From: Candidatus Shapirobacteria bacterium CG_4_10_14_0_8_um_filter_39_15
GTDB lineage: Bacteria; Patescibacteriota; Microgenomatia; UM-FILTER-39-15
Length of the DNA stretch: 64,000 bases
Assembly: GCA_002784465.1 (NCBI GenBank)
Contig: PFLE01000004.1
Span: 8,494 to 72,493, forward strand
Reading direction: 5' to 3'
The position numbers and the translations under genes were made by a program. The notes beneath the pieces are model-generated. The model was not told the origin of the DNA. It did no database searches and saw nothing but the letters and a program-made list of their open reading frames with translations. Of this stretch, positions 5,762 through 63,345 are shown in pieces. Positions within the stretch are counted from its first letter, which is position 1, and each line of letters opens with the position of its first letter.

Positions 5762-7771
5762 ATGGATTTAATTATAGTAGAATCACCAACAAAAGCGCGA
5801 ACGTTATCAAGATTCCTGGGGTCTGATTATCAGATCGAAGCCACCATGGGCCATATCCGTGATTTGCCGCAAAAAAAGTTTGCCATTAAAACCGATAAGG
5901 ATTTTGAACCGGAATATGCGGTTGTTCCCGGAAAAGAAGAAACCATTAAAAGATTGCAAACCTTAGCCAAAAAGGCTGGTAAAATTTATCTGGCAACAGA
6001 CCCCGATCGCGAGGGAGAAGCAATCGCATGGCATGCTCGCATTGCCTGCGAAAATCCGAAATCCGAAGCACGAAATTCGAAATTTGTGAGAGCAACCTTT
6101 CACGAAATTACTAAGACGGCAATTGAACACGCGCTGAAAAACCCACGTGATATTGATATGGCCCTAGTTAATGCCCAGCAGGCGAGGAGAGTTTTGGATC
6201 GGATTGTCGGTTACAAACTCTCGCCTCTTTTGTGGTTTAAAATCCGCAAGGGTTTATCGGCAGGTAGAGTCCAAACTGTCGCGGTCCGTTTAATCGTCGA
6301 GCGGGAAAGAGAAATTGAAAAATTCATTACAGTAGAATATTGGGAAATTTTCGTGGGTTTGAAAAAACATTTGGGCGGGATGATGCCGGATGCCTCGATT
6401 TTTAATGCCAAACTAATTTCTGAAAACGGCCAAAAATTGGAATTGCATAATCAGCAAGAATCGGATATTCGGGTAAGTGAGTTAAATGACGCTGGTTATG
6501 AAGTCCAAAATATTGAGAAAAAACTGGCCAAAAGACCGCCGCCCCCGCCATTTACGACTTCGACTTTACAACAGCAAGCCGCCAATCGTTTGGGTTGGCC
6601 GGCTAAAAAAACGATGAGCGTTGCCCAAAGTCTTTATGAAAAAGGTTTAATTACTTATCACCGGACCGATTCGACTAATTTGGCAATGGAGGCGGTGATT
6701 GCCGCCAGAGAATTTATTAAACAAAAATACGGAGAGAATTTTTTACCCGAAAAACCAAGGTTTTACAAAACAAAATCAAAAGTAGCGCAGGAAGCGCATG
6801 AAGCGATACGTCCAACTGAAGTTGGGTGGGAAGCGGGAAGCGGGAAGCTGCTTGCCCTGAGCGGAGTCGAAGGGGAAGTTGGATACGATGAACAAAAATT
6901 ATACGATTTGATTTGGAAAAGATTTACGGCCTGTCAAATGAGCGAGGCAGTTTTTGATGAGACAAAGTTATCAGTCTTGGCTACATCTAAAACTAACCAT
7001 TATGATTTGGAAACCTTGGGAAGAATAATCAAATTTGCCGGCTGGTTAACTTTGTACGGTAAGGGCGAGAGTGACGAAGACGGGCAATTGCAACTACCAG
7101 AATTGTTTATCGGCGATGAATTAGATTTGGTGAAAGTGAACCCGCTACAGAAATTTACCAAACCGCCGGCGAGATATAACGAGGCTTCTTTAATTAAAAC
7201 TTTGGAAGAATACGGAATTGGCCGGCCGTCAACTTATGCCCCGACGATTTCCACAATTCAAGACCGGATGTATGTTGAAAAAACAGAGAATAAATTTTCC
7301 CCAACTTCCTTGGGAATAGCGGTTAATGATTTCCTGCTGGAATATTTTCCGGACATTTTTGATTATCAATTTACTGCCCACATGGAAGACGATTTGGATG
7401 AAATTGCCAACGGAAAAAAGGAATGGGTGCCGGTAATTAGAGAATTTTTCGAACCATTTAACACGAAGTTGACCAGTGTTTCCAAAGTTTCCGAAAGAGT
7501 GGCTGTCGAAACGGAAGTCACAGACGAAAAATGTCCGCAGTGCGGCGCGCCCCTGGTAGTTCGTTTAGGCCGTTATGGTAAATTTCTTTCCTGCTCAAAA
7601 TTCCCGGAATGTAAATTCACGAAACCTTTCATAAAAGAAGCCGGTTTTAATTGTCCAAAATGCGGCGCACCGGTGGTTTTAAGAAAAACTAAAAAAGGGA
7701 AAACTTTTTACGGTTGTTCCAAATGGCCTAAGTGTGATTTTGCCACCTGGCGTAAACCAAACGTCAACTGA
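5762..7771 (+). CDS. topA: DNA topoisomerase I
   Basis: Toprim N-terminus (IIVESPTKARTL), a catalytic domain, and two C-terminal zinc ribbons (CPQCGAPLVVRLGRYGKFLSCSKFPEC and CPKCGAPVVLRKTKKGKTFYGCSKWPKC). Confidence 0.92.
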   Translation: MDLIIVESPTKARTLSRFLGSDYQIEATMGHIRDLPQKKFAIKTDKDFEPEYAVVPGKEETIKRLQTLAKKAGKIYLATDPDREGEAIAWHARIACENPKSEARNSKFVRATFHEITKTAIEHALKNPRDIDMALVNAQQARRVLDRIVGYKLSPLLWFKIRKGLSAGRVQTVAVRLIVEREREIEKFITVEYWEIFVGLKKHLGGMMPDASIFNAKLISENGQKLELHNQQESDIRVSELNDAGYEVQNIEKKLAKRPPPPPFTTSTLQQQAANRLGWPAKKTMSVAQSLYEKGLITYHRTDSTNLAMEAVIAAREFIKQKYGENFLPEKPRFYKTKSKVAQEAHEAIRPTEVGWEAGSGKLLALSGVEGEVGYDEQKLYDLIWKRFTACQMSEAVFDETKLSVLATSKTNHYDLETLGRIIKFAGWLTLYGKGESDEDGQLQLPELFIGDELDLVKVNPLQKFTKPPARYNEASLIKTLEEYGIGRPSTYAPTISTIQDRMYVEKTENKFSPTSLGIAVNDFLLEYFPDIFDYQFTAHMEDDLDEIANGKKEWVPVIREFFEPFNTKLTSVSKVSERVAVETEVTDEKCPQCGAPLVVRLGRYGKFLSCSKFPECKFTKPFIKEAGFNCPKCGAPVVLRKTKKGKTFYGCSKWPKCDFATWRKPNVN

Positions 7772-7789
7772 CAAGGTTAGACCTTGTCA
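7769..7789. repeat. REP-like 21-bp perfect palindrome TGACAAGGTTAGACCTTGTCA (copy 1; overlaps the topA TGA stop and the RAYT stop)
   Basis: Exact palindrome read directly from the sequence. Confidence 0.9.
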
Positions 7790-8502
7790 CTAATAGTATC
7801 AGCGTTGTCGAGAGCGAATTTACCTAATAGTTCTTCAGAATTTCCCGCATAGTCTTCAATAAATTTTTTATAAGAATTTATTTCTTTAGGAATAAGAAGA
7901 TTGGTGGAATCGAAATAATCAAGAATAATTTTTGGCTTAATCCAATCGGCAGATTTATTGCCTAGATAATAATTATAACTGGAGTAGGGAGAATTGACAG
8001 GGTTAAATCCTTTATTCGATAGTTCTTTAGGATTGAGATGAATATATCGAGATAAATGTAATAGATAAGAATCTTCCTGAATTAAAGCTGCCTTAAAGGC
8101 TCCTTGGAAAAGATGCCCAACTCTTTTATATCGACTATTGAAATACATAGAATAAGTTGTTAAAAGTCTTCTTAGTAATTTAGTCATTCCGTCTAAGGTC
8201 AATTGTTGTATGAGTAAATGAAAATGGTTCGGCATAAGACAATAGGCTAGTAAGATAACTTCGTTTTTTAGATTTTGGAGCGGTCGTAATCTGACAGGGT
8301 TAAACCCTGTCAGGATAAGATTAGCAAGTGGGTGTTGTTTTTGGTCGTTTTTGGTTTGCTCGGAGAGATAATACTTTAGTAGATGTAAAAAAACTCGATA
8401 ATCTTGGTCATCTAAAAAAATGTTACGTTTTTCAACTCCTCGATTGTAAACATGGTAGAATCCGTTTTCCACATACTGCTTAATAATATTTCTGGAGGGC
8501 AT
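7777..8502 (-). CDS. REP-associated tyrosine transposase (RAYT; IS200/IS605 TnpA-like Y1 HUH enzyme)
   Basis: HUH motif (LMPNHFHLLIQ) and the catalytic-Tyr region (SRYIHLNPKE) match the RAYT signature (YIHxNPV). The gene is bracketed by two copies of the 21-bp palindrome TGACAAGGTTAGACCTTGTCA. Confidence 0.8.
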   Translation of the reverse strand: MPSRNIIKQYVENGFYHVYNRGVEKRNIFLDDQDYRVFLHLLKYYLSEQTKNDQKQHPLANLILTGFNPVRLRPLQNLKNEVILLAYCLMPNHFHLLIQQLTLDGMTKLLRRLLTTYSMYFNSRYKRVGHLFQGAFKAALIQEDSYLLHLSRYIHLNPKELSNKGFNPVNSPYSSYNYYLGNKSADWIKPKIILDYFDSTNLLIPKEINSYKKFIEDYAGNSEELLGKFALDNADTISDKV

Positions 8503-8518
8503 ATTACCTACATTTTAT

Positions 8519-8539
8519 TGACAAGGTTAGACCTTGTCA
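8519..8539. repeat. REP-like palindrome TGACAAGGTTAGACCTTGTCA (copy 2; 17 bp upstream of the RAYT start)
   Basis: Exact palindrome read directly from the sequence. Confidence 0.9.
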
Positions 8540-8600
8540 AGTGGCGAAGAAAAAAAAGAGCCCCCGGCTTTGGAAAATACACAAAGCTAATGGCTCCCCT

Positions 8601-10281: not shown

Positions 10282-10302
10282 TGACAAGGTCTAACCTTGT
10301 CG
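10282..10302. repeat. REP-like palindrome variant TGACAAGGTCTAACCTTGTCG (copy 3; opposite orientation with a CTA centre)
   Basis: Read directly; lies downstream of the polysaccharide deacetylase gene. Confidence 0.85.
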
Positions 10303-10466: not shown

Positions 10467-12035
10467 ATGGCAGGCAAAAGGACAATTGACTTTACGGTTT
10501 TGGTCGATCAATATCTCCATCATGATGGTTGGAAAGCTAAAGCGACTTCTAATTCCAATTATTCCCTGTCTGGTCTAATTTCTCATACTTCGGCTTCGGT
10601 CTTGGCAAATTATGCCTTACAGAATATTTATTCACCTGCTGCCCGTAAAGCTCACGAACAAGGGATAATTCATATTCATGATTTGGCTCACTCTTTAGTC
10701 GGTTATTGTGCCGGCTGGTCGCTACAAAAATTATTAATGCAGGGATTCGGCGGGGTTGACGGGCAAATTGAAACTAAACCGGCAGCCCATTTTTCCACGG
10801 CGGTTCAGCACGTAGTTTATTTTCTAAAATCGATGTATCAGGAATGGGCGGGAGCACAGGCTTTTTCTTCTTTTGACACGATAATGGCCCCGTTTATTTT
10901 TTATGATGAATTAACTTACTCGCAAGTTTACCAAGAAATCCAAAAACTGGTCTATTCTATTAATTTGCCTAACCGCTGGGGATTTGAAATGACTTTTTCC
11001 AATTTAACTTTTGACTGGATTGTTTCTAATGATTTGGCTGACCAGCCGGCAATTATTGGCGGAAAATTAATGAAGAAAAAATATAAGGAATTTCAGAAAG
11101 AAGCAGACATGATCAACCGGGCTTTTTTGGAAGTAATGCTGAAAGGTGATAAGAATGGCCGGCCGTTTACTTTCCCAATTCCGACTTACAATATTACCAA
11201 AGAGTTTTTTGAAACCAATGGCGACAATCAAAAATTATTATTTCAGGTGACAGCAAAATATGGCTTACCGTATTTTCAAAATTATATTGGGTCAGGTTTA
11301 GATCCTTCTTCTATCCGGGCGATGTGCTGCCGGTTAAATATGAATTTAAATGAATTAATGAAGCAGCCGGGGAATCTTTGGGCAAAAGGGGATTCAACCG
11401 GATCGGTGGGGGTAGTGACGATTAATTTGAACCGACTTGCCTGGGAAGGGGCTAGCGGCAAGGGGCGAGCGGCTAGGGAAGAAAATGCCAAAAAGAAATT
11501 TTTTAAGCTGCTCAAAAAATATATTAATATTTCTGCCGATTCGTTGGAGAAAAAAAGAGAAGTAATCGAAAAAAGTATGAAAGACGGTTTGATGCCTTAT
11601 TCTAAATATTATTTGGGAACTTTTAGAAATCATTTTTCCACTATTGGGGTTTGCGGCGGTAATGAGGCCTGTTTGAATCTTCTGGGTCAGGATTTGACGA
11701 CTCCGGAAGGACAGAAATTTATCCAGGAAACCTTGAATTTTATGAAAGAGGAGATGGTTAAAATACAAAAAAAGACTGGTCATTTGTATAATTTGGAAGC
11801 GACCCCGGCCGAATCAACCGCTTACCGTTTTGCCCTGTTGGACCAGAAACTTTGTTCAGGAATAAAACTGGCAGGATCTTCTGATTCACCTTATTTGACT
11901 AACTCAACTCAACTGCCGGTAGATTTTAGTTCAGATCTTTGGGAAGCTCTCAATTTACAAAATGAAATTCAGGCGGCTTATACCGGCGGGACAATTTTCC
12001 ATACATTTTTAGGAGAAGAAATGGAAGATTGGTAA
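10467..12035 (+). CDS. nrdD: Anaerobic ribonucleoside-triphosphate reductase NrdD (class III), main body, terminated by an in-frame TAA
   Basis: Class III RNR catalytic core. The ORF ends ...GEEMEDW with TAA at 12033-12035, and the glycyl-radical domain continues in the same frame 9 nt later. Confidence 0.8.
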   Translation: MAGKRTIDFTVLVDQYLHHDGWKAKATSNSNYSLSGLISHTSASVLANYALQNIYSPAARKAHEQGIIHIHDLAHSLVGYCAGWSLQKLLMQGFGGVDGQIETKPAAHFSTAVQHVVYFLKSMYQEWAGAQAFSSFDTIMAPFIFYDELTYSQVYQEIQKLVYSINLPNRWGFEMTFSNLTFDWIVSNDLADQPAIIGGKLMKKKYKEFQKEADMINRAFLEVMLKGDKNGRPFTFPIPTYNITKEFFETNGDNQKLLFQVTAKYGLPYFQNYIGSGLDPSSIRAMCCRLNMNLNELMKQPGNLWAKGDSTGSVGVVTINLNRLAWEGASGKGRAAREENAKKKFFKLLKKYINISADSLEKKREVIEKSMKDGLMPYSKYYLGTFRNHFSTIGVCGGNEACLNLLGQDLTTPEGQKFIQETLNFMKEEMVKIQKKTGHLYNLEATPAESTAYRFALLDQKLCSGIKLAGSSDSPYLTNSTQLPVDFSSDLWEALNLQNEIQAAYTGGTIFHTFLGEEMEDW

Positions 12036-12044
12036 TCGGCTAAA

Positions 12045-12290
12045 GTGTTAGTCAAAAAAATCGCCGAAACCACAAAAATTCCCTATTTTACCATTACCCC
12101 GACTTTTTCTGTTTGCAAAAAAGATGGTAGAATGAAAGGCAAAGTTGAGAAATGTCCCAAGTGCGGAGGCGAAACGGAAATCTACTCAAGAATAGTCGGC
12201 TACCTGCGTCCTTTAAACCGTTGGAATCCGGGCAAGGCGGAAGAATTTAAAGAAAGAAAAACGTTTGAGATTACGAGTCATTCTGAGTGA
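12045..12290 (+). CDS. nrdD: NrdD C-terminal glycyl-radical / zinc-ribbon domain (same frame as 10467..12035, separated by one TAA)
   Basis: Carries CPKCG and the RIVGYL glycyl-radical motif. Its last codons and the stop lie inside a GTCATTCTGAG hairpin repeat. Confidence 0.7.
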   Translation: MLVKKIAETTKIPYFTITPTFSVCKKDGRMKGKVEKCPKCGGETEIYSRIVGYLRPLNRWNPGKAEEFKERKTFEITSHSE

Positions 12291-12387
12291 CCCTTACAGG
12301 GGTAAACGAAGAATCTAGCAAGGTCAAGCTAAGCTTGACTAAGCGCGCTGCTAGATCCTTCTCCGGCAAAGCCGGATTAGGATGACT
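12277..12387. repeat. Hairpin repeat R, copy 2
   Basis: GTCATTCTGAGTGACCCTTACAGGGGTAAACGAAGAATCTAGC ... GCTAGATCCTTC ... GGATGAC. It supplies the last codons and stop of the nrdD C-terminal ORF. Confidence 0.75.
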
Positions 12388-12818: not shown

Positions 12819-12834
12819 CGATAATAACTATAGG

Positions 12835-12855
12835 TGACAAGGTTAGACCTTGTCA
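12835..12855. repeat. REP-like palindrome TGACAAGGTTAGACCTTGTCA (copy 4; between dut and thyX)
   Basis: Exact palindrome read directly from the sequence. Confidence 0.9.
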
Positions 12856-12929
12856 ATAAAACACTTTAATTCCTCGAACATTTGTGATATAAACGCAGAG
12901 GACATTAACATTAAAAAAGGAGGCTTCAA

Positions 12930-34025: not shown

Positions 34026-34658
34026 ATGAATCTTCCTAGGCCAATCAGAAAATTGATTGAATCTTTTGAAAAATTACCGGGGATTGGGCCGAAAAGCGCA
34101 GCCAGGCTGACTTTCTACCTGCTTCATGTGCCTCAAGAGCAACTGGATGAATTTGCCAATTCATTGACCGGGTTAAAAAAGAATACGGTTTTATGTTCCA
34201 CCTGTTTTAATGTTTCCGAAGCTGATCCTTGTCCAATATGTTCTGATTCTTCCCGTGATCAAAGTATTATTTGTGTGGTGGAACAACCCCTGGATGTTTT
34301 GGCTATCGAGAAAACAGGTCGGTATAAAGGGTTATATCATGTGTTACATGGCGTTATTTCCCCGCTGGATAATATTGGCCCTGATGAATTATATATAAAA
34401 CAGTTGTTGGATCGACTGACAAGGTCTAACCTTGTCAACGAAGTGATCCTGGCAATGAACCCAAATATGGAAGGGGAAGCGACCTCGATGTACCTTGCCA
34501 AAAAGGTAAAAGGGCACTTACAGGGTAAACAAGAAGGCGAGAGAGCAGGAGGGATAAAAATTACTAGGTTGGGACAGGGGTTGCCGATAGGAGGGGATTT
34601 GGAGTATGCTGATGAAGTGACACTTACTCGCGCTTTAGAGGGAAGGCGAGAGTATTAA
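34026..34658 (+). CDS. recR: Recombination protein RecR
   Basis: HhH N-terminus (LIESFEKLPGIGPKSAARL), a C4 zinc finger (CSTCFNVSEADPCPIC), and a Toprim domain. A REP-like palindrome is embedded in-frame. Confidence 0.9.
   Translation: MNLPRPIRKLIESFEKLPGIGPKSAARLTFYLLHVPQEQLDEFANSLTGLKKNTVLCSTCFNVSEADPCPICSDSSRDQSIICVVEQPLDVLAIEKTGRYKGLYHVLHGVISPLDNIGPDELYIKQLLDRLTRSNLVNEVILAMNPNMEGEATSMYLAKKVKGHLQGKQEGERAGGIKITRLGQGLPIGGDLEYADEVTLTRALEGRREY
34427..34447. repeat. REP-like palindrome TGACAAGGTCTAACCTTGTCA (copy 5; in-frame inside recR, encoding RLTRSNLV)
   Basis: Exact palindrome with a CTA centre, located inside a CDS. Confidence 0.9.
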
Positions 34659-52493: not shown

Positions 52494-52832
52494 TTATTTC
52501 TTAGGTGGACAGCGTTCTGACCAGAAATCAGCCCCTGATTCATATTCATAGACAGAAAGGAATTCGAGACGGGATGGACTATTCGATGTAGGGTAAGCTA
52601 CATAGATTCCTCCGGTTATTGACGGATTAACGCTGATACTTACGTGTGGTGAGCAGTCCCAATCAGGCAGATAGTTCTTTACCGATACGGATGGTTGGGA
52701 TAATTGGTGGAATATCTGATTACTCCTGGTGACCAACATATAAGCCCCTATCAACATGAGTATCACGATGAGTGTCATAATTAAGGCTAAGATCTTTTTT
52801 TCCCAATCTGTCGTAGGTAGAAAACGTTTCAT
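52494..52832 (-). CDS. Hypothetical membrane protein
   Basis: 112 aa with one TM helix. Confidence 0.3.
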   Translation of the reverse strand: MKRFLPTTDWEKKILALIMTLIVILMLIGAYMLVTRSNQIFHQLSQPSVSVKNYLPDWDCSPHVSISVNPSITGGIYVAYPTSNSPSRLEFLSVYEYESGADFWSERCPPKK

Positions 52833-52974
52833 TTAGAACCTCCTTATAATAAAGTGAAAGAACAACGATTTTTGTGATTCTGAGAAGAAGTATACCAGAA
52901 AAGGGCGAGAAGTCAAGAAGGCCCTTCGACTACTCAGGGTAAACAAGAGAGCAGAAAGGAAGAGAATGATTTTG

Positions 52975-53056
52975 TGCCAAAGGGGAGACTCGAACTCCCA
53001 AGCCTTGCGGCACACGATTTTGAGTCGTGCGTGTTTACCAATTTCACCACATTGGC
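52975..53056 (-). tRNA. tRNA-Leu (anticodon CAA), type II with long variable arm
   Basis: Reverse complement is GCCAATG TGGTGAAATTGGTAAACAC GCACGA CTCAAAA TCGTGTG CCGCAAGGC TGGGAG TTCGAGT CTCCC CTTTGGC A. The anticodon loop is CTCAAAA, the T-arm is GGGAG/CTCCC, and there is one mismatch in the acceptor stem. Confidence 0.75.
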
Positions 53057-53118
53057 ATTAAAACAAGTTTATCATCTTCAGCCTTGTTTTTCAAGGCAAA
53101 AATGAATATAATAAAATC

Positions 53119-53682
53119 CTGACGATTTCTGTTAATGAATTAAAAAACGGGGCGACATTTAAATTTGATAACCAGCCGTTTATTGTTTTGAATTATGAAC
53201 ACATAAAGCTTGGCCGCGGTTCGGCGTGGATTAAAGTCAAAATCCGTAATCTTTTGACCGGTTCGGTGACCGAGAAAAGCTTTATTTCCGGAAACCGGGT
53301 TGAACCAATTGAAACCTCTAGAAAGAAATACCAATACTTGTATCACGACAGCACCGGATATGTATTCATGGAACCAAAAACTTTTGAACAGATATCTTTG
53401 GTCTCGCAGGTTCTGGCTGACCAGGTCGGATATCTCAAAGATGGGGTAACCGCGGATATTCTTTTTTTGGATGACAAACCGTTAACAATTGAATTACCTC
53501 AAAAAATGGAATTTTTGGTTAAGGAAGCTGATCCTGGTGTAAAAGGCGATTCCGCCAGCAACTTTTTGAAAGACGCGGTTTTAGATAACGGCTTGAAAGT
53601 CAGGGTTCCGCTTTTTATTGAAGAAGGAGAGAAAATTATTATTAATACGAAAAACGGGGAATATGTGGAACGGGTAAAATAA
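53119..53682 (+). CDS. efp: Elongation factor P (start codon uncertain; probably non-ATG)
   Basis: EF-P homology (ISVNELKNGATFKFDNQPFIVLNYEHIKLGRGSAWIKVKIRNLLTGSV) begins about 20 codons upstream of the TTG at 53188 used by the ORF track. There is no in-frame ATG, so the candidate starts are ATC 53116, CTG 53119 and ATT 53125. Confidence 0.75.
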   Translation: MTISVNELKNGATFKFDNQPFIVLNYEHIKLGRGSAWIKVKIRNLLTGSVTEKSFISGNRVEPIETSRKKYQYLYHDSTGYVFMEPKTFEQISLVSQVLADQVGYLKDGVTADILFLDDKPLTIELPQKMEFLVKEADPGVKGDSASNFLKDAVLDNGLKVRVPLFIEEGEKIIINTKNGEYVERVK

Positions 53683-53686
53683 AACT

Positions 53687-53731
53687 AATTGTTATATTGT
53701 TATATTGTTAGATTGCTATAATGTTAAGATG
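53687..53731. repeat. AT-rich TTGTTATA motif element (downstream of efp)
   Basis: AATTGTTATATTGTTATATTGTTAGATTGCTATAATGTTAAGATG, which includes a TATAAT box. Confidence 0.6.
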
Positions 53732-54224
53732 ATAGGAGCCAGAAGCAGAGAATGACCACGACGACTTGGGTTAAAACTCCCCAGGGAAGATCCAAATTCC
53801 ACTGTAATTTCTTTTGAACATGCATTAATTTGCTTAGATATTTATTTTTAATCCCAAAAAAGAAATAAGGTGATTCAAATAAATCCGGTAGAACGCCAAG
53901 AAAACATCCCAGCAAAACCACCATTGTTTTTTGAACATTCGGTAAAAAATGGGTGGCGATAATTGAGCCGACAATCAGGGAAATAAATGTATCTACCAAA
54001 ATAAATCTTCTTGTACCCGATCGTAAATGGTTTTCGGTTTCCATTTCCTGGGTGATCTGCGGATTCCAATGGGGAAGTAGATCGGCCGCGAAATGGGACA
54101 AAAAAGCTAAAGGTAAAGCTAACCAGGGAGATCCAATTTTGGCGGCGATGGTGGCGCCGACGATCGTGTGAGGTAATAAAAGCATATAGTTAAAAAGTAT
54201 ATTATGATATACTAAACATGTCAA
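53724..54224 (-). CDS. Hypothetical polytopic membrane protein
   Basis: 166 aa with four predicted TM helices. Confidence 0.35.
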   Translation of the reverse strand: MTCLVYHNILFNYMLLLPHTIVGATIAAKIGSPWLALPLAFLSHFAADLLPHWNPQITQEMETENHLRSGTRRFILVDTFISLIVGSIIATHFLPNVQKTMVVLLGCFLGVLPDLFESPYFFFGIKNKYLSKLMHVQKKLQWNLDLPWGVLTQVVVVILCFWLLSS

Positions 54225-54946
54225 TGCTGCCTTATATTTTAGAAATCGATTCTCTAAAAATATCGACCTTTGGTTTTTTTGCCGCTTTAGCCTTTTTTGC
54301 GGCTTCGTTTTTGCTTTGGAAACAGCTTCGGGACGATTATTCGGAAGAAGATATTTTGACTTTTACGATTGATCTTTTCTTAGCAGGAATAATTGGCGCC
54401 CGATTACTATTTGTTTTGGAAAATATTTCCTATTTTGGAATAAATTTTATTCATTGGTTTCTTTGGGGAAAATACCCCGGATTTACTCTTCCGGGAGCGA
54501 TTTTAGGCGCGGCCGCTTTTTGTTATTATTGGGCAAAGAAAAAAAATTGGGATTTATGGTTGACGGCGGATAAAATGGTAATCGTTTTTTTTCTGGTTCA
54601 GGCAATTGGGGGAATCGGATTGGTTTTATCAACCGGTAATCATTTTGATTTAGTTCGCCTTATAATTAGTTTTGTCTTTCTGCCGATCAGTGTTCTCCTT
54701 GCTAAAAATTATCGAAAATTTCTCTGGTATAAAAGCGGCAAGGTTGGTTTTGTTGCCGGATCCAGTTTTGGTTTCTATTTCCTGCTTTTAGGACTACTTG
54801 AATTTCTTAAAACAAATAGTATATACTTAGATCGAATCCTATACTTTCTTTTTTCCTTGATTTGTTTTTATTTGATTTATAAACGGTCGGAGAGAAACTG
54901 GAAGGAGGACTTAACTAATGCTAAAACAAAATTTATTTCCCGCTAA
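54218..54946 (+). CDS. Hypothetical polytopic membrane protein
   Basis: 242 aa with multiple TM helices. Confidence 0.35.
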   Translation: MSMLPYILEIDSLKISTFGFFAALAFFAASFLLWKQLRDDYSEEDILTFTIDLFLAGIIGARLLFVLENISYFGINFIHWFLWGKYPGFTLPGAILGAAAFCYYWAKKKNWDLWLTADKMVIVFFLVQAIGGIGLVLSTGNHFDLVRLIISFVFLPISVLLAKNYRKFLWYKSGKVGFVAGSSFGFYFLLLGLLEFLKTNSIYLDRILYFLFSLICFYLIYKRSERNWKEDLTNAKTKFISR

Positions 54947-55289
54947 TATTTTAAAGCCAATTGCTCGCTTTCTTCATTTGGAAGAAAAAAAGTTGGAGGA
55001 AAGAAAGAAAACTTTTGAAAAAGAAGATCCATTTTCCAATTCCGATCGGGTATCGGATAACGCGGCGATTGATACGGATGCGGCCGAGCAGTTTGATCAC
55101 TCCCGCATGGAGGCGATGAAAAAGGAAATTGATCGGAAATTGATTGGAATTAAAAAGGCATTAGCAATGATTAAAATTGGTAAGTATGGGATTTGTGAAT
55201 CCTGTGGAAAGATGATTGACACCGATCGGTTGATGATTAAGCCGGAAGCGACGTTGTGCGTTAAGTGCGAAAAAGAGAAAGAGAAATAA
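54918..55289 (+). CDS. DksA/TraR-family C4 zinc-finger protein
   Basis: C-terminal CxxC-17-CxxC finger (CESCGKMIDTDRLMIKPEATLCVKC) after a coiled-coil. Confidence 0.75.
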   Translation: MLKQNLFPANILKPIARFLHLEEKKLEERKKTFEKEDPFSNSDRVSDNAAIDTDAAEQFDHSRMEAMKKEIDRKLIGIKKALAMIKIGKYGICESCGKMIDTDRLMIKPEATLCVKCEKEKEK

Positions 55290-55376
55290 AACCATTGTTA
55301 TTTCGAGCGAAGCGAGAAACAAGCTTTGCTTATATTGCTAAAACCGCCAGGAGCGGTTTTTTGATACAATAAATAT

Positions 55377-56123
55377 ATGGAGCCAAAGATTATTTTTGAA
55401 GATGATTATCTGCTTGTTTTGGACAAACCTTCTGGTTGGGTAGTTAATGATGCGGAAACTACTAAAGGGCAAAAAACTGTACAGGACTGGCTTCGCCAGA
55501 ATTTTCAATTTTCAATTTTCAGTTTTCAAGAAATGCGGAATGGAATTGTGCATCGTTTAGATAAGGAAACTTCTGGAATATTGCTGGTTGCCAAAACACC
55601 GGAAGCATTTGTGGAACTCCAACGCCAATTCAAGGAAAGAATTGTCAAAAAAACCTATTTTGCTTTGGTGCATGGGAAGGTTGAACCGGCTGAAGGGGAA
55701 ATCAACGCGCCGGTAGGCAGAACTTCTTGGAATCGCGAGCGGTTTGGTATTACCTTGGAAGGAAAAGAAGCCAAGACAAAGTATAAAGTTCTATCCCGCT
55801 TCACGCGTCTTGTTTACCCTGTAAGGGCTTCTTGTTTCTCTTTAGTTGAGCTTTATCCCGAGTCAGGAAGAACACATCAGATACGGGTTCATATGCAATA
55901 CCGCGGTTATCCGCTGGTCGGCGATGAATTTTATGCCGGAAAAAAAACCGCGGCCGAAGACCGGAAATGGTGCCCGAGAGTTTTTCTCCATGCCGCCAAG
56001 ATTTCTTTCTTGAATCCAAAAACTGGTAAACCAGTTGAATTTAAATCGTCATTACCAGAGGAATTGGAAAACGTCTTGTCGTCATTCCGAGTGAAATCCT
56101 TACAGGGTAAACGAGGAATCTAA
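55377..56123 (+). CDS. RluA-family pseudouridine synthase
   Basis: Catalytic HRLDKETSGILLVAK motif. The C-terminal tail is encoded by a hairpin repeat, and an in-frame AATTTTC x3 repeat encodes NFQFSIFSFQ. Confidence 0.85.
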   Translation: MEPKIIFEDDYLLVLDKPSGWVVNDAETTKGQKTVQDWLRQNFQFSIFSFQEMRNGIVHRLDKETSGILLVAKTPEAFVELQRQFKERIVKKTYFALVHGKVEPAEGEINAPVGRTSWNRERFGITLEGKEAKTKYKVLSRFTRLVYPVRASCFSLVELYPESGRTHQIRVHMQYRGYPLVGDEFYAGKKTAAEDRKWCPRVFLHAAKISFLNPKTGKPVEFKSSLPEELENVLSSFRVKSLQGKRGI

Positions 56124-56184
56124 CGAAGTCAAGTCAGACTTGGCGAAGCGTTGCCACTAGATCCTTCGCTACGCCCAGGATGAC
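56081..56184. repeat. Hairpin repeat R, copy 9 (translated as the RluA C-terminal tail)
   Basis: GTCATTCCGAGTGAAATCCTTACAGGGTAAACGAGGAATCTAACG ... CAAGTCAGACTTGG ... CTAGATCCTTCGCTACGCCCAGGATGAC. It shares modules with copies 1, 2 and 8. Confidence 0.8.
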
Positions 56185-56231
56185 ATTACTCTGATTGACT
56201 GCTTGCTTGATCTGGTTTAGTATAGTATTTA

Positions 56232-57926
56232 ATGCCCGATACGGTTCTTGCTTTTAATCTTCTGGCGATTTTGATATTAGCCTTAATCGGCGGCTTGATT
56301 GCCAAAAAAATCCGCCAACCGCTAATTTTAGGTTATGTTCTTTCCGGAATTCTGTTGGGCGGATTAATTATTCGGACGGCTCAAGGTCAGCAGGCGATTG
56401 GCAGCTTGGCGGAAATCGGCGTTGCCCTATTAATGTTTTCCATTGGGGTTGAATTCTCTTTTTCCCGCTTAAGCAAAGTTAGAAACATTGCCTTTTGGGG
56501 TGCCTTAATTCAAATTTTACTGACAATTTTGTTTGGTGTGGTGGTTTTTCCAAAATTTGGTTTTGATTTTTATACCTCATTATTTTTAGGGTCTTGTTTT
56601 TCCCTTTCCTCAACGGCGATCGTGACCAAAATTCTGGCCGAAAAGGGCGAGTTGGATACCTTACCCGGGGAAATTATGATTGGTTGGTTGTTAGTTCAAG
56701 ATTTAGCGGTTTTGCCAATGGTTTTAATATTACCCCAGATTTTCGCTCTGGGAAGTCTTGGTTTGAGTAATATTCTTTTGACAATTGGAAAAATTATTTT
56801 TTTGTTGGGTTTATGTTTAGTTTTAGGCCGGGCTTTAATTCCTCGATTGATGGACAAGGTAGCGGCGGTTAATTCAAGAGAAATTCTTATTTTGACGGTT
56901 GTCACTTTATGCCTACTTTCCGCTTTCGGGACTTCCGTTTTGGGTTTGTCTTTCGCTCTGGGAGCGTTTTTGGCCGGTATATTAATTTCCGAATCGGCCC
57001 AAAATCACGCGGTTTTTTCCGAAATTCGGCCATTGCGGGATGTTTTTTCGATTGTCTTTTTTGTTTCTTTGGGCCTGATGCTGACCCCGTCGTTTTTTCT
57101 GGCCAATTTACGATTGATTTTGGGACTGGCTTTAATGATAATCTCGGTGAAGTTTGTTATTTGTTTGATCGTCTCTCTCTTTTTAGGCTATCACTTTAAA
57201 GTTTCCTTTCTGGTGGCCGCCGGATTGGTCCAAATCGGAGAATTTTCCTTTGTTTTGGGCCGGCTCGGGTTGGGGCAAAATTTAATTTCAACGGAAACCT
57301 ATTCACTGATAATTTCCGTGGCCTTAGTTACCATTACCCTCACGCCGTTTATTTTTAATTGGGCGCCGAAAATTTACAGATATTTAATCAAATCCCGCTT
57401 CCGGCCTTATCTTTTGAAAAACGATTGCGGGAGTTTAGGAGACCAGCTTCAATTGGAAAACCATATTGTCATTTGCGGCTACGGCCGGGTAGGGGGTTGG
57501 CTGGGAAGAGCCTTGATGCTTTGCCAAATTCCTTTTGTGGTGGTTGATTATAATCACGAAGTCGTAAAAGATTTGAGAAATAAAGGTGTACCGGTTGTTT
57601 ATGGCGATCCGGTGGATATCGAAGTTTTGAATTATGCTCGGGTCGATCGGGCAAGAGTGGTTGTCATTGCAATCCCGGATCAACATACTCAAGAGATGGT
57701 GGTGGTGAATGCTCTTGGGTTAAACCCGAAAATTAAAATCGTTTGCCGGACCCACCATCAGGAAAATCGGAATCGGCTTAAGGCTTTGGGAGTGCAAACC
57801 ATTATTCAACCGGAATTTGAGGCTTCTTTGTCGATTATTCATCGGATTGTTCAGGATATGGGATATACCAGCGAGGAAGTTTCCGGCAAAATTAAACGGA
57901 TCAGGTTGGAATATTCTTCCGAATGA
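56232..57926 (+). CDS. Kef-type (CPA2) monovalent cation:proton antiporter with C-terminal RCK/TrkA-N domain
   Basis: About 12 TM helices followed by a Rossmann GxGxxG motif (IVICGYGRVGGWLGRAL). Confidence 0.8.
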   Translation: MPDTVLAFNLLAILILALIGGLIAKKIRQPLILGYVLSGILLGGLIIRTAQGQQAIGSLAEIGVALLMFSIGVEFSFSRLSKVRNIAFWGALIQILLTILFGVVVFPKFGFDFYTSLFLGSCFSLSSTAIVTKILAEKGELDTLPGEIMIGWLLVQDLAVLPMVLILPQIFALGSLGLSNILLTIGKIIFLLGLCLVLGRALIPRLMDKVAAVNSREILILTVVTLCLLSAFGTSVLGLSFALGAFLAGILISESAQNHAVFSEIRPLRDVFSIVFFVSLGLMLTPSFFLANLRLILGLALMIISVKFVICLIVSLFLGYHFKVSFLVAAGLVQIGEFSFVLGRLGLGQNLISTETYSLIISVALVTITLTPFIFNWAPKIYRYLIKSRFRPYLLKNDCGSLGDQLQLENHIVICGYGRVGGWLGRALMLCQIPFVVVDYNHEVVKDLRNKGVPVVYGDPVDIEVLNYARVDRARVVVIAIPDQHTQEMVVVNALGLNPKIKIVCRTHHQENRNRLKALGVQTIIQPEFEASLSIIHRIVQDMGYTSEEVSGKIKRIRLEYSSE

Positions 57927-58840
57927 AAAAGAATTATCGGTTTTTGTTTTGGATTATTATTGCGCTTATCTTGGTGCCCTTGGGTTTGAAAATATTTTAT
58001 TCGTTTTCCCGCAGCGTGTGGGATGGTAAACAAAGAATTAATTTCGTAATCGAAAATTCGCGAATAAACCTTGTTTCCTATTCACCAACCAATCAAGAAT
58101 TGACATTGATTACTCTTCCGGACGAACTTTTATTAAATGTGCCTCGGGGTTATGGTGAATTTACCGCCAGAGCTTTGCCAAAGTTGGTGAGTCAGGAAAA
58201 AAGGCCGGAATTATTAAAAGAAACAATTCAAGAAAATTTTGCCGTTCCGGTTGACGGCTGGATAAATGTTAGTAATTTTGGAAAAGAAAATAATCCCAGA
58301 AATCGTGTCACCGATGCTTTTATAGCGGCGCTGAAATTAAACGGATTGACAAATCTATCAGATTGGGACCTGATTAGGTTTTGGTGGGCAGCTCGGGCGG
58401 TCAGAAGCAGTAATATTCAATCGATCGACCTTTCGGATTACCGATGTTTGGTGGAAGGAAAACTTCCGGATGGCACGCCGATTTTTAAATTGAATCAGGA
58501 AATGCTTGACTCGGTGATTCAAAAATATTTTCCGGATGATTCCCTGCGCGCCTCTAACTTAACCGTTCAGATTTTAAACGGAACTGATCATTCCGGTTTG
58601 GGTCAATCGGCCTCAAGAATTCTTACCAATATGGGAATAAAGATTATTGATGTTGGCAATATGGGGAACGGAATTGAGAAGTGCGAAGTGAGAGGCGGGG
58701 AGGAATTAAAGAATTCTTATATCGTCAAAAAAATATCGGGAATATTTAATTGCGACTGGTTGGAGTTAACCGAAAAAGGCCGGTCGGATATTATCGTTGT
58801 TATTGGTGAAAATTATTGGAGAAAATTAAATATCAAATAA
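57923..58840 (+). CDS. LytR-CpsA-Psr (LCP)-family protein with LytR_C-like C-terminal domain
   Basis: N-terminal TM helix, a LCP-like core, and a C-terminal NLTVQILNGTDHSGLGQSASRILTNMGIKI segment. Confidence 0.45.
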   Translation: MKKNYRFLFWIIIALILVPLGLKIFYSFSRSVWDGKQRINFVIENSRINLVSYSPTNQELTLITLPDELLLNVPRGYGEFTARALPKLVSQEKRPELLKETIQENFAVPVDGWINVSNFGKENNPRNRVTDAFIAALKLNGLTNLSDWDLIRFWWAARAVRSSNIQSIDLSDYRCLVEGKLPDGTPIFKLNQEMLDSVIQKYFPDDSLRASNLTVQILNGTDHSGLGQSASRILTNMGIKIIDVGNMGNGIEKCEVRGGEELKNSYIVKKISGIFNCDWLELTEKGRSDIIVVIGENYWRKLNIK

Positions 58841-59668
58841 CTATTCTTCCAAATTATGGTCCAGCGGTTCTTCTTCAGGCGTTTCATCATTTTTGTCGTC
58901 ATCGGTTTTTTCATCACTGCCTTCAGCATCGGCCATTTCCGGTCGGGTTTCGTGTACCAGGTCAGGTGGGACGAAAGCGGAATAAGCAATTTCCTGGGGA
59001 GGAAACGAGGATAAATTGACGAATTTTTTTGAGCGAAAAATTTCCCGAATGAAAATTTTTATTTCTCCGGGTTCGATTGATTTGATATTCACTTCGTATT
59101 TGTTTCCACCCTTTAAGAAAGAAATCAACCTTAAGGATAAGTCGTCGGCCAATTTGCCCAAATAAACGCCTTTTTTGGTGGTGGCAACAATCGTTCTTTT
59201 TTTGGGGACAATTTCAATTTCATCGCCGATTGAAAGAGAAAGAACAATTTCTTTTTCGGCGATTTCAACCAAAGAAGTAGTTTTCGTTTTCCCGGGATCT
59301 TCCAAAAAGAGATTGGGATTTAAAGGCGCTTTGGATTCGCATTTGGAGAATTTTTTTGTGGCGATCGTCAATAAGTTTTTTTGAGCAATTTGATTATAAG
59401 GATCTAGTTTCAGAACCTTGTTGAAATATTTTTTGGCGGTTTCGGCCTTGCCCAATTCCAGGTAAGCATGACCGAGGCGATTCAAAGCCTCAATATTTTC
59501 CGGATTGGCTTTAACGATTTGTTCGTTACATTTAACCGCTTCTTTCCAATCCTGAACTAAAGCGGCGGTGATGGCTTGTTGCGTTAGGTCGTCAGTCATA
59601 TTAATTAAGCTAGTTAATTTTATAAGGGTTGTCAAGCCCGAATTTCGGTAATTATCCCTTGACATCAT
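58841..59668 (-). CDS. TPR-repeat protein with acidic C-terminal tail
   Basis: TPR units (EALNRLGHAYLELGKAETAKKYFNKVLKLDPYNQIAQ) and a C-terminal DDDKNDETPEEEP tail. Confidence 0.55.
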   Translation of the reverse strand: MMSRDNYRNSGLTTLIKLTSLINMTDDLTQQAITAALVQDWKEAVKCNEQIVKANPENIEALNRLGHAYLELGKAETAKKYFNKVLKLDPYNQIAQKNLLTIATKKFSKCESKAPLNPNLFLEDPGKTKTTSLVEIAEKEIVLSLSIGDEIEIVPKKRTIVATTKKGVYLGKLADDLSLRLISFLKGGNKYEVNIKSIEPGEIKIFIREIFRSKKFVNLSSFPPQEIAYSAFVPPDLVHETRPEMADAEGSDEKTDDDKNDETPEEEPLDHNLEE

Positions 59669-59673
59669 GTAAT

Positions 59674-60375
59674 ATGAAAGATAAATTTAGCCTCGGTGGT
59701 TTTCTTAAGAAATATAGAAATGATGAGGTTTGTTTAGAGTATCTTGTTAAGATTAAACATCCTTCCGGAATCTTTTGTAAGAAGTGTCAAAAAATAACAA
59801 ATTTTACTAAGGTTAAAGACAGACCGGTTTATCAATGTTCCTGCGGGTATCAAATATCTCCTCTTTCTGGAACTATCTTTGAAAAGACAACCACTCCTCT
59901 TCAGTATTGGTTCTATGCCATATTTATTATGAGTGTAACAAGGTCGGGGGTATCAGCTAAACAATTACAAAGAGAATTAGGAGTAACATATAAAACTGCG
60001 TGGAGAATCTTTAAAATGAAATACCAAAGGAAGTAGTCATGGGGATGATAAAAAGATCGAATACCGGGAAGGGTGGAGAAAAAGCATACCTTAAACATAT
60101 TCCCAATACAGGCAAATGGTTTCTTCTTCAGCAAATTAAAGATCATATAGACCCTAAGGCCAGAGTTATCACTGATGAATATTACGGATATACCCAACTT
60201 AAAAGATACGGATACAATCAATGGAGTATATAGAGTTGTTTCTAAAAAGTATTTACAGGCATATATTGATAAGTATAGTTGGAGATACAATAACAGAATG
60301 TTTAAAGACAGAATGTTTGAAAGGTTACTTGGTGAAATCGTAAATGTTAAAGCTTTTCCAGTAAGAATTATTTAA
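59674..60375 (+). pseudogene. IS1595-family (ISXO2-like) transposase, frameshifted into three ORFs and internally shortened
   Basis: N-terminal zinc-ribbon/HTH (EVCLEYLVKIKHPSGIFCKKCQK ... CSCGYQISPLSGTIF ... LQRELGVTYKTAWRIFKMK), an RVITDEYYGY block, and the C-terminal YIDKYSWRYNNR motif typical of IS1595 transposases. These are spread over 59674..60036, 60039..60233 and 60175..60375. Confidence 0.6.
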
Positions 60376-60451
60376 TTTACATGTTCTTATATTTATATAA
60401 GAATGAAGAATCTGTATTTTTATCATAATTGGCTTCAAAAACATTAATTTT

Positions 60452-62014
60452 TTGTACCCACACGTAGGTACTATTTGCTTCTTAACTTTTTGTTTGATAC
60501 ACTTAAATTTGAGACATATGGAAGAAGAGAATATTAATCAAGAACAATTAGTAGTGAATCAGGTTAGGGATCAAGGGAATCAAACAATTTCTTTAAAAAA
60601 AAGAGGATATCTTTTCCTGATTGTTAGTCTAATATTAGTTTCGTTTCTTATTGGTGGTGCATATTATTTAGGAATGAATAATACCAAACAAACGCCAACT
60701 TCATTTTCTTCCTTTAATCAAAGTACCCCACAACCCACAGTTAATCAGTTACCACAAGGGTCAAAAATATTAATTCAGGAAGGAAATGGACCATCGGGCA
60801 ATTCAACATTTTCTATACTTGATTTGGAAACAAAACAAAAAAGCCTAATTATACCTTCGGATTTATCCCCTAATAATCAGCAAGAACCAAGTTTTGTAAT
60901 TTCTCCCGATAAAAGATACGTAGGAGTAATGACAAGTACAAGTACGTCAAAAACTCAAGAATCTGATCTATATATTTTCTCATTAATCGATCATAGTTCT
61001 AAAAAATTGGCAAGCAATTTAAATCCTCCACCTTTTGATATTGTCTTTACCAATGGCATGACTGTATATTCTGGTCTTACCTGGTCACCAGATAGCCATA
61101 AAATTGTATTTTTATCTGGGGTAACGAGAAAACCAGAGTTGTGGATGGTTGATATTGATGGAAATAATTTAAAACGGATAACGAATGATGGTACATTTAA
61201 AGTTAATTTACAGTGGTCACCGGATGGTACAAAAATTTTATATAGATCTCTCGCAAACAACAATTTAACCGGAACGGTTTATCTATATGATGTTAACACT
61301 GGAAATAATACCCAACTGAATGTGAGTTCTAATAGTTTTCTTCAAAAGCTGTTGAAAGATGATAATGATTATCGAATACCTTATATATGGATAGATTCTG
61401 ACACTTTATTGATTACTGTTCCTTCCTTTTCTGTTAATCAAAAAGCAGATCTTCAAGGATTATGGCTTTTAACAGTTTCAACTGTTCAGACCAAAAGGAT
61501 AGTTTCGAAACCATTATCCCCGAATGATCAGTTGTATATTAGTCCTGATAAAAAACAAGTAGTTTTTGTTAGAAACGAAGAAAAAACCGGAGCGATAGGT
61601 ATGACATATAACAGTTGGTTGTCCAATTTAGACGGGACAGGACTTACCGATTTAGGAGTAAGAATAAATTCTGTGAGTTGGTCGCCAGACAGTAACTCTT
61701 TTGTTTATGCTACTACCCCAAATAATAACATGATAGGTTTGTGGATTTACAATATTGCTACAAAAAACACAAATAAAATTTTGGGGTTAGATGGCATGAA
61801 GAGTACATATCTGTCTAATATTACTTGGTCACCTGACTCAAAGAGATTATTGCTCCAAGAGATTGTGGTGACAGGAGAAGGTTCTAATGGACCAAGTATA
61901 TCTCAAGAAGAAAATGACAAGCAAGGAGTTTGGTTAGTAAATAACGATGGAACGAATCTACAAAAGATTACAGATTTCGGAAATACCTTAATAACTCCCT
62001 TACTTTGGTATTGA
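60452..62014 (+). CDS. WD40-like (TolB-type PD40) beta-propeller repeat protein with N-terminal TM helix
   Basis: Repeated WSPD motifs (LTWSPDSHKIVF, LQWSPDGTKILY, VSWSPDSNSFVY, ITWSPDSKRLLL). The gene is very AT-rich. Confidence 0.65.
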   Translation: MYPHVGTICFLTFCLIHLNLRHMEEENINQEQLVVNQVRDQGNQTISLKKRGYLFLIVSLILVSFLIGGAYYLGMNNTKQTPTSFSSFNQSTPQPTVNQLPQGSKILIQEGNGPSGNSTFSILDLETKQKSLIIPSDLSPNNQQEPSFVISPDKRYVGVMTSTSTSKTQESDLYIFSLIDHSSKKLASNLNPPPFDIVFTNGMTVYSGLTWSPDSHKIVFLSGVTRKPELWMVDIDGNNLKRITNDGTFKVNLQWSPDGTKILYRSLANNNLTGTVYLYDVNTGNNTQLNVSSNSFLQKLLKDDNDYRIPYIWIDSDTLLITVPSFSVNQKADLQGLWLLTVSTVQTKRIVSKPLSPNDQLYISPDKKQVVFVRNEEKTGAIGMTYNSWLSNLDGTGLTDLGVRINSVSWSPDSNSFVYATTPNNNMIGLWIYNIATKNTNKILGLDGMKSTYLSNITWSPDSKRLLLQEIVVTGEGSNGPSISQEENDKQGVWLVNNDGTNLQKITDFGNTLITPLLWY

Positions 62015-63338: not shown

Positions 63339-63345
63339 ATCCTCA

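Follow-up and report, generated by a model that had tools for sequence, protein, structure and literature searches.

We analysed a window of 64,000 nt from contig PFLE01000004.1 (assembly GCA_002784465.1) of a Candidatus Shapirobacteria genome, which belongs to the Candidate Phyla Radiation (CPR). The subject is a minus-strand gene for a Y1 HUH enzyme resembling the REP-associated tyrosine transposases (RAYT; REP, repetitive extragenic palindrome), together with a 21-nt perfect palindrome that flanks the gene, recurs within it and is dispersed elsewhere in the window. With the 9 kb on each side of the window, the searched source DNA amounts to 82 kb. On the right, locus L090 is 100% identical to window positions 52607-64000 and continues past the window end; labels of this form (L072, L073, L074 and so on) denote loci from other CPR contigs that were compared with the window. 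The initial annotation of this DNA had reported a RAYT-type transposase bracketed by a dispersed palindrome, and the observation as a whole is real, the copies and the open reading frame (ORF) being confirmed by exact search, by shuffling and by an ORF check. The features, some of them inside coding sequences (CDSs), are the following.

7777..8502, minus strand: RAYT-like class-2 Y1 HUH gene, 241 aa
7769..7789, no strand assigned: putative 3' cognate hairpin, common to the convergent topA and RAYT-like genes and holding both stop codons
8518..8540, no strand assigned: putative 5' cognate hairpin TTGACAAGGT-TAG-ACCTTGTCAA, 15 nt upstream of the ATG
8291..8313, no strand assigned: internal hairpin 1, CTGACAGGGT-TAA-ACCCTGTCAG, in-frame in the CDS and read LTGFNPV
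7995..8015, no strand assigned: decayed internal hairpin 2, TGACAGGGTTAAATCCTTTAT, with an intact left arm and 3 mismatches, read KGFNPVN
10282..10302, no strand assigned: solo hairpin, 20/21, 15 nt past the polysaccharide-deacetylase stop and upstream of nrdD
12835..12855, no strand assigned: solo hairpin, exact, 17 nt past the dut stop and upstream of thyX
34417..34437, no strand assigned: recR-embedded hairpin, exact, inside the recR CDS 34026-34658 (plus strand), read LTRSNLV
8512..8540, minus strand: sigma-70-like promoter overlapping the 5' hairpin, scan match 11/12

The 21-mer TGACAAGGTTAGACCTTGTCA occurs exactly at 7769-7789, 8519-8539 and 12835-12855 on the plus strand and at 34417-34437 as read on the minus strand, against an expectation of 0.00 from 100 dinucleotide-preserving shuffles of the window. 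Five exact copies had been claimed initially. Those at 7769, 8519 and 12835 are indeed exact, but the last one starts at 34417 rather than 34427, and the copy at 10282 matches at only 20 of 21 positions (CGACA... on the matching strand). The two relatives noticed within the ORF, at 8291-8311 and as a half-site at 7998-8011, also exist with small corrections: the former lies at 8292-8312, differs from the 21-mer by 3 mismatches and is a G:C variant with a perfect stem at 8291-8313, while the latter is actually GACAGGGT at 7996 plus a decayed right arm with 3 mismatches. Both flanking copies, both solo copies and the recR copy carry an A:T pair where internal hairpin 1 has G:C, and a TAG/CTA loop. 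At the 3' end, the 7769 copy begins with the three bases of the topA stop codon TGA, and the TAA of the RAYT-like ORF spans the stem-loop junction of the same copy, so that the protein ends in ...DKV*. The 21-nt core of the 5' hairpin (8519-8539) lies 16 nt upstream of the ATG.

No other short perfect hairpin in the window comes near the six window copies in strength; when folded as single-stranded DNA, these are predicted to reach -9 to -11 kcal/mol (z about -6). No conservation between the window copies extends beyond the 21 bases, and each copy is a singleton, no REPIN doublet being found among them. A stop codon precedes three of the five window copies by 0-17 nt, and the loop orientation in the window and its extension is divided 3 to 3, i.e. 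without strand bias. In the whole 82 kb there are seven GACA-family copies (six exact, near-exact or variant and one imperfect), four of them in or beside the gene. An imperfect copy, GGACAAGGTCTAACCCTGTCA, with one A·C / G·T mismatch, was seen at L090:12899-12919, about 1.5 kb past the right end of the window and within a Phage_integrase (Xer-like) gene.

Motifs, profile and fold support the assignment of the gene product to the RAYT-like class 2 of Y1 HUH tyrosine enzymes. Both motifs reported initially, NHFHLL and YIHLNP, are present in the 241-aa product: the HUH motif is NHFH at aa 92-95 and the presumed catalytic Tyr153 lies in YIHLNP at aa 153-158, accompanied by LFQG and a YSSY tail. 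N92, H93, H95 and Y153 are invariant across 67 aligned homologues. The Pfam profile Y1_Tnp (PF01797) is matched at 35.5 bits against a cut-off of 23 (E 1.2e-8), over aa 79-155 only, the N-terminal strand being set apart from this part by the hairpin-encoded loop. The AlphaFold model has a predicted local distance difference test score (pLDDT) of 80.6, and its best PDB match in a fold search is 4er8_A, the E. coli RAYT bound to its REP hairpin (E 1.5e-6), followed by IS608, ISDra2 and IS200 TnpA. The transposase type proposed initially is thus borne out as to class-2 Y1 HUH membership, motifs and nearest modelled fold, but the protein scores 38.5 bits with the NCBIfam RAYT equivalog REP_Tyr_transpos (NF047646), below its 80-bit cut-off. 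The motif set and the length correspond to TnpAY1 subclass 2.1, a comparison by motif only, made with Table 1 of PMC6006769. A Pfam scan at E <= 0.1 gave no Bac_DnaA_C, HTH_23 or HTH_28 domain, and the tail (aa 170-234) is predicted to be helical. The product is 100% identical to a Ca. Shapirobacteria protein, and in CPR metagenomes the family is very large, with 7880 matches among the 8000 candidates scored.

The relation between gene and palindrome was then followed in 16 homologous genes (33-77% protein identity) from Shapirobacteria-like contigs, Paceibacterota, Nomurabacteria, Saccharibacteria and further CPR bins, a set that includes a divergent paralogue adjacent to the window. All 16 carry a palindrome 5' and/or at the stop codon, most of them both, and its sequence follows the protein lineage; the proposal that the palindrome is a cognate, dispersed family is upheld in this respect. 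The 5' palindrome lies 20-70 nt upstream of the start (at -23 to -71 in the homologous loci), and the 3' palindrome is at the stop codon or no more than about 25 nt from it; wherever a locus includes the 3' end of the gene, a hairpin is located at this codon or overlaps it. Internal hairpin 1 appears at +166 to +189 in 9 of the genes. At the position of internal hairpin 2 (+466 to +497) an intact hairpin is present in L072, L074, L075, L077 and L080, and a copy with 2 mismatches in L073. This arrangement, i.e. a 5' hairpin, one or two internal in-frame hairpins and a stop-codon hairpin, is conserved down to about 33% protein identity. The bracketing by the palindrome thus does not indicate a recent insertion of a mobile element but belongs to a conserved gene architecture. 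Likewise, since relatives carry hairpins at the same internal positions, the internal relatives are real but are homologous parts of that architecture and not chance look-alikes. Six unrelated palindromes fill these positions across the lineages.

Family 1: TGACA[AG]GG-N3-5-CC[CT]TGTCA
Family 2: TGTTAAACAC-N3-GTGTTTAACA
Family 3: AGCTTCGCAAGG-N5-CCTTGCGAAGCT
Family 4: AGGCACGCAAGGCG...
Family 5: TCAGGCC-N-GGCCTGA
Family 6: CATTCC-N-GGAATG

In most loci the copies are alike in stem variant and loop, for example with the loop CGC in L074 and ACGGA in L075; L072, where the loop varies, and L073, where the stem varies, are partial exceptions. In the window the 8292 copy retains the G:C pair found in relatives. 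Internal hairpin 1 is read LTGFNPV here and RQGLTLS, in another frame, in L014, L050 and L053, so the conserved thing is the DNA palindrome and not the peptide. In the AlphaFold model both peptides fall in regions of low pLDDT, that of internal hairpin 1 in an unstructured loop between helix 32-46 and strand 82-89 and that of internal hairpin 2 in a linker just after the catalytic-Tyr helix. That the palindrome is the cognate, dispersed hairpin of the Y1 enzyme and changes with the protein lineage is therefore supported. On comparative sequence grounds, it is strongly supported that the two would form an enzyme-hairpin pair of the RAYT/REP kind, and equally that hairpin and protein specificity probably changed together several times, the flanking and dispersed copies apparently being kept alike within a genome.

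Two further observations concern the gene family and its hairpins. The paralogue, of 224 aa with THFH and YIHLNP motifs, is a second, divergent class-2 Y1 protein encoded at L090:14522-15196 (minus strand), about 3.1 kb past the right end of the window; it is flanked by the 13-bp palindrome CATTCC[G/C]GGAATG at L090:14479 and 15243, which is not dispersed in the window. Tandem duplications of single arms occur beside intact hairpins at L072:3795-3860, in the 5' regions of L074 and L053 and in the recR codons of L086, for example TTGACAGGGTCTTA three times in L072 and CTGACAGGA-CTGACAGGG in the L086 recR gene. Slippage, or cleavage and rejoining at the hairpin, may have left them behind.

We read these data as a domesticated chromosomal class-2 Y1 HUH enzyme of the RAYT/TIRYT kind, for which the 19-21-nt perfect palindrome is the hairpin that it recognises, and we give this reading a probability of roughly 0.7. 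By analogy with E. coli TnpAREP and IS608 TnpA, the enzyme would bind the hairpin extruded in single-stranded DNA and would cleave and rejoin next to or within it. Such cleavage and rejoining could seed new copies and also keep existing ones identical to the master copies at the gene. Copies in CDSs would persist where they fall in tolerant loops and encode harmless peptides (TR[SFL]NLV or [RG]QGLTLS). How the copies spread and stay uniform is what we infer from these better-known enzymes.

The promoter over the 5' hairpin suggests a further role. Its perfect -35 box TTGACA (8540-8535) is the hairpin arm itself, followed by a 17-nt spacer, a -10 box TAAAAT (8517-8512) and 9 nt to the ATG. The same geometry is found in L072, L073 and L074. 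In the more distant L014, L016, L061, L067, L053 and L077, the ATG is preceded at 6-9 nt by a TATAAT-like box. The arrangement suggests a leaderless or near-leaderless mRNA with a promoter overlapping the hairpin, from which we infer that the protein might autoregulate, the 5' copy with its arm as the -35 box letting it control its own expression. As a separate observation, the 12835 solo hairpin gives a strong promoter-like match at 12827-12856 on the minus strand (TTGACA-18-TATAGT, 11/12), directed antisense into dut.

To view the palindrome beyond the window, a set of 185,579 species genomes, to which the source species did not belong, was scanned for GACAAGGT-YWR-ACCTTGTC. The 71 loci obtained comprise 45 from named CPR, 5 from metagenome-assembled genomes named only 'bacterium' and 21 from other phyla; the chance expectation for the scan is estimated at about 17, near the 21 loci of other phyla. 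The CPR copies have mostly TAA/TTA loops. A homologue of the ORF is present in seven of the scan loci, and in 6 of the 7 its cognate hairpin is this palindrome, L016 having a different one. A metagenome scan with the exact variant of the window gave 10 loci, all from organisms other than the source. Long ORFs contain many of the CPR copies, which are read there as TR[FL]NLV or [RG]QGLTLS and rarely as DKVKP; the third reading frame of the hairpin yields DKV*, the stop with which the gene of the enzyme itself ends. Among the CPR host genes are those for NAD-dependent DNA ligase, UvrC, the C-terminal subunit of a split transketolase, Asp/Glu racemase, M1 peptidase, a P-type ATPase and TGT, and those in the window and its extension include recR and the Xer-like recombinase gene. 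In the UvrC gene of L059 (2693-3901) two hairpin families, TGTTAAACAC... and GACAAGGT..., occur at 3056 and 3711, and in L018 UvrC is hit at another position; DNA-repair genes recur among the hosts.

The copies inside genes do not look like insertions. When transketolase and LigA were aligned to solved homologues, no gap was found across the motif, and RecR shows +1 residue only against solved RecR structures. In orthologues from different Paceibacteria-type genomes (transketolase, UvrC, M1 peptidase) the motif stands at the same codons with third-position identity of 0.45-0.51; these cases were found by motif search and are hence ascertained. RecR homologues, gathered by protein similarity, provide a test independent of that search. 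In the closest relatives (78-90% identity) the same codons carry a hairpin, which is missing from more distant homologues. The site is retained in five genomes, the window and 4 relatives, with compensatory and largely genome-specific variants, as listed below.

Window: TGACAAGGT-CTA-ACCTTGTCA
L086 and L089: TGACAGGG-ACGGA-CCCTGTCA, equal to the variant flanking the gene in L075
L088: TGACAGGAT-CAG-ATCCTGTCA
L087: TGACAAGG-ATGAA-CCCTGTCA, in which one pair is mismatched (A·C, or G·T on the opposite strand)

In a set of 18 distinct variants, 4 of the 9 stem pairs are changed on both sides (13 cells), a value that none of 500 shuffles reaches. At the outermost position, 73 of 118 copies have a Watson-Crick pair, and all four pair types are used. 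Together with the different reading frames of internal hairpin 1, this speaks for selection at the DNA level rather than the protein level.

These results bear on an alternative in which the hairpins are fixed functional chromosomal sites, with a logic as in parS/ParB or matS/MatP, which a domesticated HUH protein binds or nicks for the host, for example in regulation or single-stranded-DNA processing; selection would act on each position, there would be no ongoing mobility, and the sites would co-change to match the protein. The compensatory changes at the same recR codons in five genomes speak for it, as do the orthologous codons in transketolase, UvrC and M1 peptidase at so low a third-position identity, the lack of insertion in recR, ligA and transketolase, the few copies clustered near the gene, the syntenic gene conserved like housekeeping genes (described below), and the many DNA-acting hosts (recR, ligA, uvrC, the Xer-like gene and the 3' end of topA). 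However, the intergenic copies at 10282 and 12835 differ from the syntenic L072 and L073, the more distant RecR orthologues have no site, the cases found by motif search carry their ascertainment with them, and the host gene set names no function. It is also hard to picture many separate sites changing in step by point mutation. GC skew is positive throughout the window, so there is no origin or terminus within it and parS-like clustering near an origin is uninformative. Overall, we regard fixed sites as a rather unlikely account of the whole, though one of some substance.

Several points weigh against our own interpretation. The copies in recR, ligA and transketolase replace codons, which ordinary cut-and-paste or copy-and-paste would not yield, and CDS copies are kept at orthologous codons despite near-saturated synonymous sites, which fits selection on fixed sites better. 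Double-stranded symmetric sites for a dimeric protein would covary in the same way as hairpin stems, and covariation alone is compatible with both; the imperfect copies with mismatches (the 5' copy of L073, the recR copy of L087 and the xer-like copy of L090) are too few to indicate which strand folds. In 74 oriented copies no base outside the 19-21-nt palindrome is conserved, so that the GT[AG]G guide and any conserved flank marking a cleavage site are absent among them. The copy number is low, with 7 in 82 kb clustered near the gene. As for the protein itself, it misses the RAYT equivalog cut-off (38.5 vs 80 bits), and a sequence-profile search of the PDB with it gave no match.

The misfits with simple insertion are two: CDS copies replace codons, and some positionally conserved sites track the variant of their genome. 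Two readings are left for them, individually selected co-evolving sites or an enzyme that overwrites them with a master copy, and the present data do not separate the two. In the latter, the hairpins would be conserved chromosomal sites across CPR, kept uniform by the HUH enzyme through a non-insertional 'copy-over': the enzyme would cut on both sides of a hairpin-forming stretch and a master hairpin would be ligated in, so that about 21 nt are overwritten in place, even inside essential genes such as recR, ligA and uvrC. We consider this extension speculative and on balance improbable.

The surroundings of the gene bear on its domestication. In L072 the homologue (69% identity) has the same place as in the window, with the polysaccharide-deacetylase gene on one side and topA-dprA on the other, and in L073 (68% identity) it lies one gene further, between nrdD and the deacetylase gene. 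The window has its 10282 solo hairpin at the very junction that holds the RAYT-like gene in L073, and this hairpin is absent from the orthologous junction in L072. The dut|thyX junction of L073 has no hairpin, so the exact copy at 12835 in the window is a lineage-specific gain or loss. Of the orthologous sites, whose comparison had been proposed initially, those of both intergenic copies have no copy at the L072/L073 junctions, and the recR site is kept in 4 relatives. The protein identity of 68-69% compares with 62-71% for the neighbour topA, 50-58% for dprA, 41-60% for the deacetylase, 51% for dut and 77% for nrdD. The protein is thereby about as conserved as its housekeeping neighbours. The gene is chromosomal, vertically inherited and housekeeping-like, a behaviour also described for RAYTs, and does not fit an active insertion sequence.

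An active insertion sequence of the IS200/IS605 type, with the dispersed hairpins as its solo ends or miniature derivatives, would account for the identical same-orientation hairpins at both ends, which recall the subterminal hairpins of IS608, for the other intergenic slot used in L073, where the window holds a solo hairpin, and for the fold match with IS608 and ISDra2 TnpA. We nevertheless find it very improbable. There is one gene copy in 82 kb, and the only paralogue is divergent and has a palindrome of its own; the Tyr motif, Y---NP, is that of class 2 and not the Y---Q of IS200; no tnpB was found among the neighbours of the gene; and synteny and housekeeping-like divergence point the other way. 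The family is also essentially absent from phage and plasmid collections, a PHROGs search giving nothing, and the hairpins over the promoter, at the stop codon and inside the CDS are conserved to about 33% identity. In general, the IS200/IS605 TnpA proteins (IS608, ISDra2) share with our enzyme the fold, the chemistry, the same-strand hairpins at both ends and the presumed recognition of hairpins in single-stranded DNA, while their Y---Q motif, multiple near-identical copies, frequent tnpB and presence on plasmids are not seen here.

Three side observations concern other parts of the window. The nrdD reading frame (ORFs 10467-12035 and 12045-12290) is interrupted by an in-frame TAA at 12033-12035, ...FLGEEMEDW* SAKVLVKKIAETTKIPYFT..., behind which the glycyl-radical C-terminus follows without a change of frame; in L073 the orthologue is uninterrupted, with Glu at this codon. 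A nonsense mutation or pseudogene, a splitting of the gene, or a mistake in the assembly could each account for the TAA. In the nrdD-dut spacer, positions 12323-12339 form a perfect 7+3+7 hairpin, GTCAAGC-TAA-GCTTGAC, whose sequence is unrelated to the 21-mer family. Around window positions 59674-60375 (L090 7068-7769), short ORFs with weak matches to the IS1595 zinc ribbon and DDE transposase are found, probably a decayed IS1595-family element.

The position of the copies also raises the question of whether the palindrome has anything to do with the Y1 protein, as it could be a generic RNA element (a terminator or an mRNA-stabilising 3' hairpin) or a DNA-uptake signal. Competence genes occur in CPR bacteria, in this window dprA adjoins topA, and the motif has copies within CDSs without insertion; the uptake signal sequences and DNA uptake sequences (USS/DUS) of other bacteria likewise have motif copies in CDSs without insertion. 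The half-site GACAAGGT alone, however, is not enriched in the 64 kb (3 isolated copies vs about 2 expected) and the density is far below one per kb; the half-site and uptake-signal idea was rejected on the lack of enrichment. Three of the five window copies follow a stop codon within 0-17 nt, like many REPs (PMC3733652), but no T-run stands after any copy, the tails being CTAATA, AGTGGC, GTGCGC, ATAAAA and ACGAAG, and none is called terminator-like. The terminator idea was rejected for want of T-runs, and the palindrome is not the generic terminator that had been considered as its alternative, copies also lying 5' of the gene and inside CDSs. Besides, the loop orientation relative to transcription is mixed, no Rfam family matches the hairpin, and the tight lineage-specific pairing with Y1 genes would be left unexplained. 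Hence we see scarcely any chance for an element unrelated to the enzyme.

The system is best placed by comparison with known ones. The E. coli REP/RAYT system (TnpAREP, REPtron; subclass 2.2; 4ER8) also consists of a single-copy, chromosomal, housekeeping-like Y1 HUH gene with Y---NP, flanked by its own palindrome, which is also dispersed and often lies just after stop codons, and it is the best structural match of the model. The two differ in that the E. coli protein has DHLH and WE, whereas NHFH, FQ and an 80-aa C-terminal tail are found here. In contrast to the canonical REP, an extragenic imperfect hairpin with 5' GT[AG]G at its foot that occurs in inverted doublets and at high copy number, the present hairpin is a perfect 9+3+9 without GT[AG]G foot, bulges or REPIN doublets, and its foot TGAC lies inside the stem. 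There are tens of copies at most here and hundreds in E. coli, and CDS copies occur here without insertion. The label 'REP-like' used initially does not hold in the canonical sense, given the missing foot and doublets, the few copies and the several copies inside housekeeping CDSs.

The motifs are nearer to subclass 2.1 of TnpAY1 (group 1 of Bertels, TIRYT), for which no REP-like sequences have been reported (Quentin et al. 2018, PMC6006769); the CPR genomes were not sampled in the surveys of Y1 proteins (PMC6006769; Di Nocera et al. 2013, PMC3733652). Shared with this subclass are NH[YF]H, FQ, Y[IV]HLNP, the SS tail motif, a length of 241 aa here vs a median of 238 aa, and a low copy number. 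For the subclass, either no REP-like sequences or long terminal inverted repeats with GGGGWSAS are reported, whereas short self-complementary hairpins flank the gene and are dispersed here; both flanks have the same self-complementary 21-mer in one orientation, unlike the terminal inverted repeats of TIRYT. The C-terminal helix-turn-helix or DnaA_C-like domain of that subclass was not detected by Pfam in our protein.

Hairpins inside the enzyme's own gene have a parallel in subclass 2.4 of Cyanobacteria and Bacteroidetes, where the cognate repeat also lies in-frame within the enzyme CDS in a surface region away from the active site. There, however, it is a long 'double-foot' GTAG REP between HUH and Tyr at a variable place, while the hairpins here keep to two set positions, one ahead of the HUH strand and one behind the Tyr helix, that are conserved across lineages and read in different frames. 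The intragenic REPs and the Rickettsia palindromic elements (RPE) are likewise in-frame palindromes in housekeeping and often DNA-repair genes. Both kinds add residues, RPEs with roughly 100-150 bp and intragenic REP dimers with 20-30 aa or more, whereas 19-21 nt replace codons here at a cost of 0 or +1 residue, and the site is conserved among related genomes. In the literature searched for RAYT, REP or IS200 together with CPR or Patescibacteria, no description of such a system was found.

With this finding, systems of the REP/RAYT kind reach a new lineage, the CPR, in an unusual form. Judged from its sequence, the system would work like REP/RAYT but stand outside the strict RAYT equivalog, and by motifs it appears closest to subclass 2.1 (TIRYT), which means that proteins like those of subclass 2.1, reported without REPs, can have cognate hairpins. 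RAYT/REP is the textbook case of a 'tamed' transposase that lives with its repeats, and the form described here has several useful features: very small CPR genomes, a bare 21-nt hairpin, few copies, fixed positions, a clear co-variation of hairpin and protein over six hairpin families, and some copies that stay at given codons of housekeeping genes while their sequence follows the current variant of the genome. With oligonucleotides of TGACAAGGTCTAACCTTGTCA and one purified 241-aa protein, both the copying and uniformity of the repeats and their benefit to the host become testable. Annotators gain a signature for the odd 7-residue motifs (TR[SFL]NLV, [RG]QGLTLS) in CPR proteins. If copy-over were true, a relative of transposases would homogenise sequences in a new way, and sites of DNA structure would be conserved within coding regions, which is rare.

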